Part shown: positions 6,001 through 9,000 of the stretch, one piece after another | Numbering within the stretch: position 1 is the stretch's first letter | How the letters are laid out: each line of letters opens with the position of its first letter | Assembly: GCF_009931435.1 (NCBI RefSeq) | Contig: NZ_CP043414.1 | Origin: Escherichia coli | GTDB taxonomy: Bacteria; Pseudomonadota; Gammaproteobacteria; Enterobacterales; Enterobacteriaceae | Length of the DNA: 64,000 bases | Direction: 5' to 3' (one strand) | Position numbers: made by a program

Positions 6001-9000
6001 TTAAATAGTTTTAATTTAGCAAATTTGATAAACAACTCACTCGCCATTACCCCGATTGATCTTCGCATAGTCAAACGGCGTAATCGCTCTCTCCCGATTG
6101 GCATCCAGAAAATCTGCCCACCACTGCAGCATCAGCTTGCGCTCATCCAGATGCTCCGCTTTATGGATATACGCTGCCTGCACTGAGTTACGTCCATGTG
6201 GCTCATCTGACGTTCAGCCGCTTTATCTCGTGCTGTTCTGGTCTCAATACTTCCATGCCGTTGCAATTACCTCTTAAACCATTCCTTACCATTTTCATGT
6301 CTTCGATAAGAAATCTTCATCATGCATGATCGATTTTGTCGATCGATTCGATCGAATTTTCTCTTTTTACCCTGCCTTTTGCATGGTTTTAAAATAGGCA
6401 AAATTACTTGTCATTCGTGGAAAATGATGGCGGAGATAACTGAGCTTAAAAAGTTTCTCTTGTCTCCGTCACTTGCCATACCAGCCAGGAAAAGAAGATG
6501 TCAGCACAAGAAAAAACAGTACAGATTGATTCTTTTGATGCGAAATTTTTAGATATAAATACATTAAGCAAGCTTATCTATGAACGTAAGAGTTTTGTGA
6601 TAGAAAATGTTTCCGATGTTAGTGAAACGGTAAAAAGAGTGGAGCATGAAATAGAGAAAAGGAAATTAAGTTGTCGTGTATATACTGAGTACAGGAGCAC
6701 AGCTTTAGCTGGTTCTTTATGGTCACCAACCGTAATTCTGGGAGTGGCGAGTGCAGTAGCAATAGGTGTTCATAATTTATCTACATGGAACCCCGATTAT
6801 GAAATCGGTAAGAACTATATTAAACGGAGATTATCGGTAAAATATAAAAAGGCAGAAGTATTGTGATCGGTTACTCCAGTGCCCCTGCCTGTTCGTATTC
6901 TGGTGAGGTTGTATACACATAATTTCAGGCTGGCGTTCACGTCCTCACTGAGGAAATATATTTATTTTGTGTAGAGTAAAAGTCTGGCTTCCGTAGTGTG
7001 GAGGGGGGAGGCTGCCTTTAGTCCGGTTTTTAAATATTAAAAATATATATTAAAGTGATGATACAATAACGGAGATAATTGAAATGAAAAAGGTTTTTGC
7101 TGTTTCAGTGGTGGGCGCAGCCTGTGTATTTGCAGCAAATGCAGGTGCTGAGGACGGTAAAAGCGGTTTTTATCTGACCGGTAAAGCCGGTGCCTCTGTG
7201 GTGTCACTTTCAGACCAGCGTTTCCTGTCAGGAGATGAAGAAGAAACGTCAAAGTATAAAGGTGGGGATGACCATGACACGGTATTCAGTGGCGGTATCG
7301 CAGCCGGTTATGATTTTTATCCGCAGTTCAGTATTCCGGTTCGTACAGAACTGGAGTTTTACGCACGTGGAAAAGCTGATTCGAAGTATAACATAGATAA
7401 AGGTAAAGGCAGCTGGTCAGATGGTTACTGGCGTGATGACCTTAAGAATGAGGTATCACTCAACACTCTGATGCTGAATGCATACTATGACTTCCGGAAT
7501 GACAGTGCATTCACACCATGGGTATCAGCAGGGATTGGTTACGCCAGGATTCATCAGAAAACAACCGGTATCAGCACCTGGGATTACGGGTACGGATACA
7601 GTGGTCGTGAATCGTTGTCACGTTCAGGCTCTGCTGACAACTTCGCATGGAGCCTTGGCGCGGGTGTTCGCTATGACGTAACCCCGGATATCGCTCTGGA
7701 CCTCAGCTATCGCTATCTTGATGCAGGTGACAGCAGTGTGAGTTACAAGGACGAGTGGGGCGATAAATATAAATCAGAAGTTGATGTTAAAAGTCATGAC
7801 ATCATGCTTGGTGTGACTTATAACTTCTGACGACACTGCTTCTGAACGATAATTGCGCATATTTCTGCAATTAAGATAATTACGTATTTCTGTAATTAAA
7901 AAGGAACACCCTGCAGTAATATTATACTGCAGGGTTGTCTGTTATCTGTTTCACAGATAACTTCTGATTTTTATTATCCTGTTCTCTTCATAATAATGTT
8001 GTCGATATACTCCGATGAATATAAGAAAACTGTTTTGTCCGGGCAACACTCCCCGGATTATATTGTTTTTATTCTTTTTTGTTGTTTCTGTCATAACCAC
8101 AATTGCATGCGGATACACTGAGAAGAATGCCACCGGGAATGTGTTGCTGCTGTTCCTTCTTCTGCTCCTTGCACACAGAAATACCCTCACATCCATTACA
8201 GCGCTGTTATTTCTGTTCTGTTGTGCACTGTATGCGCCTGCCGGTATGACGTACGGAAAAATCAACAACAGTTTTATTGTCGCGTTGTTGCAGACCACGG
8301 CGGATGAGGCTGCGGAGTTTACCGGGATGATTCCTGTTTATCATTTTCTGGTCAGTGCCGCGATTCTGGTGTTCATGGTTATTTTCTGGCGGACACACCA
8401 CCGTGGTCAACGTAACGCGATGGCTCTGTTGTTATTCGTATTATGCTCTGTAAACAGCTGGCCGTTACGGATGGTTAAAGGAACAGTTGTGGGGACAACT
8501 GACACATTGCGTGAAATGCAGCGTTATGAACAACTGAGTCGGCACGGTGCTGACAGCTGGAAAATCCTGCCGGGAGCACCATTATATGACACGATTGTTA
8601 TTGTTACTGGTGAGAGTGTCCGCAGGGATTATATGTCGGTATATGGTTATCCCGAGCCAACCACACCATGGCTGAATACGGCTCCCGGTTTATTTATTGA
8701 CGGTTATACATCGGCAGCAGCCAGTACCGTACCTTCCCTGAGCCGGACACTGATTTATGACTATGAGCAGAACCCTGACTCCGGCAACAACGTGGTGGCG
8801 CTGGCAGCAAAAGCAGGATACAGCACATGGTGGATATCCAATCAGGGAAAGCTGGGGGAGCATGATACACGCATCTCTGTTATTGCTTCTGATGCGGAGC
8901 ATACCGTTTTCCTCAAGAAAGGCAGCTTTGCTTCCCGTAAAACGGATGACATGTTGTTGTTACAGGAAACAGAACGTGCGCTGGCAGATACATCCACTCC

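Follow-up and report, generated by a model that had tools for sequence, protein, structure and literature searches.

What do two perfect inverted repeats do in the short stretch of DNA between an adhesin-type gene and an enzyme gene on an Escherichia coli island? In the window, as we call the whole 64,000-nt stretch analysed here, a gene for an outer-membrane protein (OMP) of the Tia/Hek/Hra family is followed, within a selC (tRNA-Sec) island, by a gene for a YjgX-like phosphoethanolamine transferase, and the 184-bp spacer between them carries both repeats. A first reading, made from the sequence alone, had proposed a likely terminator for one and a possible operator for the other. With a probability of about 0.62, we favor reading the spacer as a compact terminator-promoter junction, in which palindrome 1 (hairpin 1 when folded as RNA) would end the OMP mRNA, a sigma-70 promoter would start the transferase mRNA, and palindrome 2 (hairpin 2) would not be a functional unit of its own. 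For an E. coli island, both palindromes have the look of common gene punctuation. The coordinates of the features are collected in Table 1.

Table 1. Features of the OMP-transferase region, in window coordinates.
Feature	Position	Strand	Basis
OMP gene, 248-aa outer-membrane beta-barrel, Tia/Hek/Hra (heat-resistant agglutinin) family	7084..7830	+	ORF and RefSeq orthologues
Tandem pair of 25-27-bp units, OMP 3' untranslated region	7848..7899	+	direct repeats, fold of 7831-7980
Hairpin 1, 11-bp perfect stem, loop ATATTA; putative intrinsic terminator of the OMP gene	7908..7935	+	repeats, fold, terminator scan
T-rich stretch following hairpin 1, made of a tandemly duplicated 7-nt unit (TTGTCTG, TTATCTG)	7935..7948	+	sequence
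Palindrome 2, 9-bp perfect dyad with loop ttc, allele-specific	7941..7961	+	repeats, fold
-35-like hexamer TTCACA (TTTACA in many alleles), putative transferase promoter	7950..7955	+	promoter scan, conservation
-10-like hexamer TATTAT, 16 nt past the -35 hexamer, 37 nt before the ATG	7972..7977	+	promoter scan, conservation
Phosphoethanolamine transferase gene, 500 aa, full-length counterpart of the K-12 pseudogene yjgX	8015..9517	+	ORF and RefSeq annotation

The locus and its alleles

The locus resembles the tia, hek, hra1, hra2 and hes adhesin-invasin loci: its OMP is of the same family, it lies on a selC-associated island, and orthologous loci are annotated tia. Indeed, the RefSeq orthologues of the OMP are named "outer membrane protein" or "invasion outer membrane protein Tia", and the window protein shows 94% identity to the F11 OMP and 63% to a Tia-annotated allele. 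The loci of this family are found on tRNA-associated E. coli pathogenicity islands, and a description of the family is given in PMC5539235. The same paper, devoted to LAA and Hes, makes no mention of a terminator or of the transferase, and a full-text literature search found no description of the OMP-transferase spacer. For the transferase, every NCBIfam match to models of the CptA/EptA type falls below the model cutoff. The K-12 yjgX aligns to window positions 8331-9501 with 90.6% identity; it is 5'-truncated and devoid of the spacer, so that K-12 data are uninformative here. The transferase ATG at 8015 has no obvious Shine-Dalgarno sequence. An ATG at 7996 was considered as the start of an upstream ORF and rejected, as it is replaced by ATA in the Tia-type alleles and the start is not conserved. 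Upstream of the OMP gene, a 122-aa ORF contains a hydrophobic stretch and matched no NCBIfam family; an IS1 lies downstream of the OMP-transferase pair.

To follow the spacer across lineages we drew on E. coli genomes and gut metagenomes for 48 distinct alleles (alignment A2), all retrieved with a probe placed in the OMP coding end, which leaves the spacer content unbiased. The strains RX24 and FORC 064 carry the window allele, with 99.8% identity over this region. At least 80% of the spacer region is present in 1497 of 5426 genomes, and RefSeq annotates both the OMP and the transferase genes under the match in nearly every genome sampled. The OMP proteins diverge to 63% identity and the transferase stays at 94-96%, which argues for separate histories of the two genes. 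In natural isolates, insertions of IS2 or of IS66-family elements are found between them. For other species, one genome of each was searched with 21 nt of the OMP coding end, and the single orthologous contig recovered was E. coli-like though labelled as a Bacteroidetes MAG. The matches in Rheinheimera and Ewingella have the C-terminal codons alone in common with the probe and are followed by terminators of their own.

Palindrome 1 and the probable end of the OMP transcript

The inverted-repeat search returned two perfect 11-nt arms separated by 6 nt for palindrome 1 (ACCCTGCAGTA, 7908-7918, and TACTGCAGGGT, 7925-7935) and two perfect 9-nt arms separated by 3 nt for palindrome 2 (GTTATCTGT, 7941-7949, and ACAGATAAC, 7953-7961). 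The sequence-only reading had correctly reported two palindromes between the two genes, with the right strings, but each stem is 1 bp longer than it proposed. Its end point at 7959 cuts the last arm short, since the 8-bp arm ACAGATAA ends at 7960 and the 9-bp arm at 7961. Moreover, the second palindrome does not follow the first immediately, the stems being separated by 5 nt (TGTCT), and the distance from palindrome 2 to the transferase start, given as about 55 bp, is 53 nt before the ATG when measured.

In the whole window we counted about 13 distinct inverted repeats that are perfect, have a loop of 3-8 nt and reach an arm length of 9 bp or more. Its dinucleotide-preserving shuffles contained 2.0 +/- 1.3 such repeats, and 0.1 when the arms had to reach 11 bp. 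Two of the 13 or so stand 5 nt apart in one 184-bp spacer, and together they are far above chance expectation. An Rfam scan of positions 6800-8400 (E <= 10) gave best scores of 14-24 bits, against gathering thresholds of 45-62, and for families that are eukaryotic or unrelated.

From its position, its stability and its conservation, hairpin 1 most likely serves the OMP gene as an intrinsic terminator. It lies on the coding strand and starts 77 nt past the OMP stop codon. The predicted RNA fold reaches -19.7 kcal/mol (z -5.65, with 0 of 200 shuffles as good), and 6 of the 11 pairs of the stem are G-C. The terminator scan flags this hairpin with the tail TGTCTGTTAT. The sequence that follows the stem, TTGTCTGTT, contains 6 T in 10 nt, and the U tract TTGTCTGTTA passed the simple scan with this count though it is interrupted by G and C. 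In several respects hairpin 1 is like the enterobacterial rho-independent terminators: it is GC-rich, it is found soon after the stop codon, it has an A-rich stretch before it and a T-rich stretch after it, and its arms are conserved and its loop free. It differs from them by its interrupted T tract (TTGTCTGTTATCTGTTT), in place of a run of 7-9 T, and by a symmetry sufficient to make it seem bidirectional, yet there is no convergent gene. The interruption of the T tail means that termination may be partial.

The comparison of the 48 alleles points in the same direction. Hairpin 1 is kept in all of them, with 95% of the cells paired and a folding energy that ranges from about -7 to -23 kcal/mol. 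No part of the spacer is as well conserved as its arms, whose majority fractions are 0.96 and 0.90 compared to 0.73 for the loop, which varies freely in sequence and in length (3-6 nt). In every allele the first 10 nt past the stem contain 5-8 T, and the tail unit is found as a single copy in the Tia-type and L040-type alleles. The stem of one allele, L041, is extended on both sides to 13 bp (-22.8 kcal/mol), and an A.C mismatch is present in the stem of the common Tia-type alleles (13/48). Hairpin 1 has been retained despite the divergence of the OMP protein to 63% identity, and it remains with the OMP gene where an IS2 or an IS66-family element splits off the transferase. Among the 11 pairs of the stem, we observed no double-sided compensatory change in the 48 alleles, and the covariation measures were not above those of shuffles; the support for hairpin 1 is therefore its conservation and not covariation. 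Wobble cells are equally distributed, with 12 G.U on the + strand and 12 on the - strand. As the hairpin is symmetric and its left flank A-rich, these pairs cannot be used to assign the strand. The earlier proposal of a likely terminator at palindrome 1 agrees well with the position, the stem, the T-rich tail and the conservation in 48 of 48 alleles.

Palindrome 2 and the putative transferase promoter

What is conserved at palindrome 2 is a pair of hexamers resembling a sigma-70 promoter, which would serve the transferase. TTCACA-16-TATTAT matches 10 of the 12 consensus positions and is the best sigma-70-like match between 6800 and 9800, in a sequence where matches at 9/12 or better are common (11 found for 6.2 expected in 3 kb). 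The pair, in the form TTYACA-N15-18-TATTAT/TATTCT, is kept in 45 of the 48 alleles despite several spacer indels, and the other three carry only TTTATA-16-TATTGT. Four of the six columns of the -35 hexamer are invariant. Compared to sigma-70 promoters (-35 TTGACA / -10 TATAAT), the likeness lies in the match to the hexamers, in their distance from the start codon and in the conserved spacing; the differences are the absence of an extended -10 (TG) and the location, right on the tail of the terminator that precedes it. The region of palindrome 2 is probably a region of transcription start, where the evidence favors a promoter over a dyad bound by a repressor.

Palindrome 2 is probably an allele-specific coincidence and no functional unit by itself. 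Most of its left arm is formed by the second copy of the hairpin 1 tail (TTATCTG), and its loop and right arm are occupied by the -35 hexamer. The window allele is the strongest of the 48, with a predicted RNA fold of -9.6 kcal/mol (z -3.52, a stability attained by 3 of 200 shuffles), and the energy falls to about -1 kcal/mol in the common Tia-type alleles. Indeed, only some half of the alleles have a perfect dyad, the right arm carrying A-to-G and T-to-A changes in the other half, and conservation in the region is lowest in the outer part of this arm. A natural variant of the arm reads GAGAC where the window has ATAAC, which leaves the -35 hexamer intact. In alignment columns, 24 of the 48 alleles leave 122/137 unpaired, and T.G is found at 123/136 in 24 alleles and at 121/138 in 15. 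Covariation in hairpin 2 stays within the shuffle range for the 48 alleles, with one pair showing a double-sided change, in 2 cells. The exact window version of palindrome 2 occurs in 56 E. coli genomes.

We thus propose that hairpin 1 and its T-rich stretch act as a rho-independent terminator that would end most OMP transcripts, and that the next 40 bp carry the sigma-70 promoter, from which the transferase mRNA would start at about position 7984. In such an arrangement, the left arm of palindrome 2 would stem from a duplication of the T-rich terminator tail, the -35 hexamer would make up the loop and the inner right arm, and the outer right arm (GATAAC) would be complementary by chance, in the allele lineage of the window only. 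The sequences, their stability, their position and the conservation pattern in the 48 alleles are direct observations; from these we infer termination at hairpin 1 and initiation at the hexamers. This organization suggests that the Tia/Hek/Hra-type adhesin gene and the YjgX-like transferase gene are separate transcription units. The map of the junction can be useful for reporter fusions or deletions at these virulence-island loci, and otherwise matters little beyond annotation.

Alternative readings of the spacer

Palindrome 2 could instead act as RNA, as a weaker second stem-loop of the + strand that would serve as a back-up terminator or as a 3'-end protector for OMP read-through, at least in the lineage of the window. 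We consider this unlikely. The terminator scan does flag hairpin 2 (9 pairs, tail TTCTGATTTT), its fold is more stable than that of most shuffles (-9.6 kcal/mol, z -3.5), and across the 48 alleles its non-Watson-Crick cells favor G.U on the + strand, with 93 compared to 4 for the - strand; a C-to-T change at column 124 also leads to U.G in two different allele backgrounds. This bias, however, traces to a few A-to-G transitions inherited by many alleles, and covariation does not leave the shuffle range. Moreover, the stem is AU-rich with 3 G-C pairs only, the T run begins 8 nt past it, and in half of the alleles an A.A mismatch and two wobbles bring the energy to between -5 and -1 kcal/mol, the hairpin being essentially absent from the most frequent Tia-type alleles. 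A little less probable again is a single operon transcribed from the OMP promoter, where hairpin 1 would be a partial terminator (attenuator) and the hexamers would be non-functional. The two genes are on the same strand and co-occur, the T tail of hairpin 1 is interrupted, and the transferase start lacks a clear ribosome-binding site, all of which would suit an operon. But a hairpin of -19.7 kcal/mol is stronger than simple pausing would lead one to expect, and the maintenance of the -35/-10 pair and its spacing in 45 of 48 alleles speaks against non-functional hexamers. The contrast between the 63% identity of the OMP and the 94-96% of the transferase, and the IS2 and IS66-family insertions that separate the genes in natural isolates, likewise speak against a common transcript.

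The earlier suggestion of an operator is not supported. A dimeric transcription factor, with CRP as one candidate, would bind palindrome 2 on the -35 hexamer and repress or activate the transferase promoter, which we regard as quite improbable. The perfect 9-bp dyad does overlap the -35 hexamer, its exact version is shared by the 56 genomes mentioned above, and TGTTA-N6-TCACA (7940-7955) fits the CRP core (TGTGA-N6-TCACA) at 9/10 in the window allele. Unlike the operators of dimeric regulators, however, palindrome 2 loses its symmetry in about half of the alleles, its outer right arm being the least conserved, and it has no regulon-like second copy. With up to 3 mismatches allowed, its sole other match in the window, at 55162, is at chance level, and a 31-nt query against 5,426 E. 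coli genomes found only full-length (at least 84% covered), unannotated intergenic matches, the median being one per genome, which fits their being this one spacer. A related motif is absent from the rest of the 64-kb window. No gene for a DNA-binding regulator was evident next to the OMP-transferase pair either, where those examined code for a membrane-like hypothetical protein, for IS1 and for restriction-modification proteins. As for CRP, the 64-kb window contains 3 cores at 9/10 or better, and scores in the other alleles are 5-9/10. CRP sites are expected near -41.5 or -61.5, and the center of the candidate lies at about -36.5 from the predicted start, which fits neither class I nor class II; the site was rejected as chance-level, unconserved and mispositioned relative to the consensus. 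In a LexA box, CTGT and ACAG are spaced by 8 nt, and at palindrome 2 they are spaced by 3 nt, so LexA was rejected as well. The direct repeats of Fur, PmrA and PhoP gave partial matches to their consensus only, unconserved in the single-copy alleles. Palindrome 2 being probably an allele-specific coincidence, there is little reason to seek a regulator that binds it.

Least probable of all, in our view, is a role of the OMP 3' untranslated region beyond termination, either released as a 3'-UTR-derived regulatory RNA, or acting as a switch specific to some lineages, whereby the formation of hairpin 2, or the binding of a protein at the dyad, would occlude the -35 hexamer of the transferase. If true, such a switch would couple the expression of the adhesin to that of a lipid-A/LPS-modifying enzyme. 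The OMP 3' untranslated region contains three to four predicted hairpins in succession, consisting of two TAATTRC/GYAATTA units, hairpin 1 and, in some lineages, hairpin 2. Each of the tandem units can fold into a TAATTRC...GYAATTA hairpin (7850-7857/7866-7873 and 7877-7884/7891-7898). They are present in one or two copies according to the allele, and one pair of their hairpin shows a double change, from G-C (20 alleles) to A-U (16 alleles).

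Two adjacent palindromes in an island gene pair

Two perfect inverted repeats lie 5 nt apart within 7900-7961, aaaggaacACCCTGCAGTAatattaTACTGCAGGGTtgtctGTTATCTGTttcACAGATAAC, between the gene of a Tia/Hek/Hra-family outer-membrane protein (OMP) and that of a YjgX-like phosphoethanolamine transferase. The sequence-only reading had both strings right, and the repeat search confirmed each as a perfect inverted repeat. However, both stems extend by one more pair than it had given, and its end point at 7959 falls short, as its second arm reaches 7960 and the 9-bp arm 7961. Of perfect inverted repeats whose arms measure 9 bp or more and enclose a loop of 3-8 nt, the 64-kb window holds about 13 distinct ones, two of them side by side here, against 2.0 ± 1.3 in dinucleotide-preserving shuffles of the whole window (0.1 for arms of at least 11 bp). 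RNA folding gave -19.7 kcal/mol (z -5.65) for hairpin 1, the first palindrome, and -9.6 kcal/mol (z -3.5) for hairpin 2. The pair is thereby confirmed as real and non-random.

Features of the locus and its surroundings (window coordinates)
Feature	Position	Strand	Description
Upstream ORFs	490-5814		apparent defence cluster
OMP gene	7084-7830	+	encodes 248-aa outer-membrane beta-barrel protein
Tandem duplication	7848-7899		25-27 bp units, OMP 3' untranslated region
Inverted repeat 1, perfect	7908-7918 / 7925-7935		11 nt arms, 6 nt between; repeat search
Inverted repeat 2, perfect	7941-7949 / 7953-7961		9 nt arms, 3 nt between; repeat search
Putative -35 hexamer	7950-7955		TTCACA
Putative -10 hexamer	7972-7977		TATTAT
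Phosphoethanolamine transferase gene	8015-9517	+	encodes 500-aa product
GC-rich hairpin	8026-8069 (core 8037-8058)		GTCCGGG...CCCGGAT, then long T-rich run
Resistance region	~9600-35800		IS1 copies at both ends
InsB ORFs of the IS1 copies	9898-10401; 35278-35781		
merR/merT			within resistance region
blaTEM	11640-12500		within resistance region
Two Tn3-family transposases			within resistance region
merA	17116-18810		within resistance region
Class 1 integron integrase	28229-29242		within resistance region
tRNA-Sec	38973-39067		same as in RX24

Several E. coli strains carry chromosomal islands 99.8% identical to the region; in strain RX24 the island adjoins an integrase gene and the tRNA-Sec that is also found in the window. 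Orthologous OMP genes are annotated as 'outer membrane protein' or 'invasion outer membrane protein Tia', and the family is that of the Tia/Hek/Hra/Hes adhesins (PMC5539235). The transferase gene corresponds, at full length, to yjgX of K-12, a pseudogene from which the 5' end and the spacer are missing. The spacer region is present in 1,586 of 5,426 complete E. coli genomes, in up to four copies per genome. Upstream, the first ORF of the apparent defence cluster stayed under the cutoffs of the type I restriction-modification and MADS methyltransferase models that it matched; by position, these ORFs correspond to the M and S restriction-modification subunits, an AAA ATPase and a hypothetical protein of RX24. 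At the site of the resistance region, the corresponding selC island of RX24 carries just one IS1.

Conservation of hairpin 1 among spacer alleles

Ten alleles were fetched from complete genomes (alignment A1). A probe, the 21-nt pattern GGTRTGACTTATAACTTCTGA from the OMP coding end, which places no constraint on the spacer, was then run against one genome per species and a metagenome collection. The species representatives yielded one orthologous contig only, the Rheinheimera and Ewingella matches being rejected as unrelated OMP genes that carry terminators of their own, and the metagenome scan gave 120 loci. Alignment A2 holds the 48 distinct spacer alleles left once duplicates and IS-interrupted copies were set aside. 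The E. coli OMP-transferase spacer also occurs on a contig of 2.5 kb that bears a Bacteroidetes MAG label (JAEXBS010000036.1, L013) and is probably a binning contaminant.

Hairpin 1 is kept in 48/48 alleles of A2. Its arms have the highest majority fractions of the spacer (0.96 and 0.90), with an almost invariant CCCTGC/GCAGGG outer stem, whereas its loop varies most (0.73), in sequence as in length (ATATTA, CTATT, ATTA, ATA, TGC, AATAG). Standard pairs fill 95% of cells; sliding the partner columns lowers this to 21-60%. Folding energies span about -7 to -23 kcal/mol, from the Tia-type alleles, with an A.C mismatch in the stem and its last G also lost in extraction, to one allele (L041) in which changes in both flanks extend the stem to 13 bp. 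Every allele has 5-8 T in the first ten bases past the stem. The hairpin is retained despite divergence of the OMP protein to 63% identity, and it remains with the OMP gene in strain EC581, where IS2 has entered just downstream, and in three metagenome contigs that have an IS66-family element there.

Within the 11 pairs, no double-sided compensatory change was found among the 48 alleles and the covariation measures did not exceed shuffles, so the case rests on stability, position and the contrast between arms and loop. A simple terminator scan flags the hairpin on both strands, and its wobble pairs show no strand preference (12 vs 12). Hairpin 1 and its T-rich tail most likely act as the OMP gene's intrinsic terminator, and the terminator proposed by the sequence-only reading is thus supported as far as sequence analysis goes.

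Operator, RNA hairpin or promoter at palindrome 2

Palindrome 2 is not conserved as a DNA dyad, since changes in its right arm, which reads ACAGGAGA, ACAGGATA or similar in half of the alleles, break the pairing and lower the stability in many of them. The window allele is the most stable of the 48; columns 122/137 are mismatched in 24/48, T.G is found at two other pairs in 24 and 15 alleles, and the Tia-type, 02B21-type and 600029-type groups fold at only -2.3 to -0.8 kcal/mol. A 7-nt tandem duplication of the terminator tail, TTGTCTG|TTATCTG, supplies the left arm from its second copy. The unit is not duplicated in Tia-type and L040-type alleles, and there hairpin 1 therefore continues directly into TTATYTGTTTCACAG.

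The operator first suggested for this palindrome found no support. The motif has no above-chance second copy in the window (one match at three mismatches, 0.11 expected), and a 31-nt probe matched E. coli genomes only at full length and in unannotated (intergenic) sequence, with a median of one match per genome. The gene pair is flanked by a small hypothetical protein (hydrophobic stretch, no family match) and IS1, with restriction-modification genes further upstream according to family matches and the RX24 annotation; none of these encodes a DNA-binding regulator. A CRP site was rejected: TGTTA-N6-TCACA overlaps the palindrome and scores 9/10, but three such cores occur in the window, other alleles score only 5-9 of 10, and its centre would fall at about -36.5, which does not suit the positions such sites occupy. 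The spacing of CTGT...ACAG is not that of a LexA box, and Rfam gave no meaningful match. A second RNA hairpin is a weak candidate: substitutions favour pairs that retain G.U in the + strand RNA (93 cells, vs 4 for the - strand), but this bias goes back to a small number of inherited transitions, and covariation stays within the range of shuffles.

What is conserved is the hexamer TTYACA in the loop and inner right arm, four of its six columns being invariant. With TATTAT 16 nt downstream it forms the best sigma-70-like match (10/12) in the 3 kb scanned, with 37 nt between the -10 element and the transferase ATG. TTYACA, 15-18 nt and TATTAT or TATTCT are kept in 45/48 alleles despite several spacer indels; the remaining three have TTTATA-16-TATTGT. 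This is the pattern expected for a promoter of the transferase's own, and the separate histories of the two genes (63-94% identity for the OMP vs 94-96% for the transferase) fit separate transcription units. The palindrome pair is probably an ordinary terminator-promoter junction between two island genes, a reading in which, at the level of sequence, the terminator is supported and the operator is not.

Between the window and loci L002, L006 and L010, the fall of OMP amino-acid identity to 63% beside a transferase at 94-96% suggests diversifying selection or allele replacement limited to the surface protein. Independent IS insertions occur a short way past hairpin 1, ahead of the transferase -10 element: IS2 separates the -35 from the -10 hexamer in EC581 (L010, about 1660-1680), and the IS66-family element directly follows TTTCACA, just past the hairpin, in L031, L065 and L130.

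Other hairpins nearby

Each unit of the tandem duplication folds into a TAATTRC-N8-10-GYAATTA hairpin, present as one or two units per allele; at one stem pair 20 alleles have G-C and 16 have A-U, a double-sided change. The GC-rich hairpin only 22 nt inside the transferase ORF is also flagged as terminator-like by the scan. As its stem is weakened in the L013-type allele, it probably arises as a side effect of encoding a Phe-rich membrane helix.
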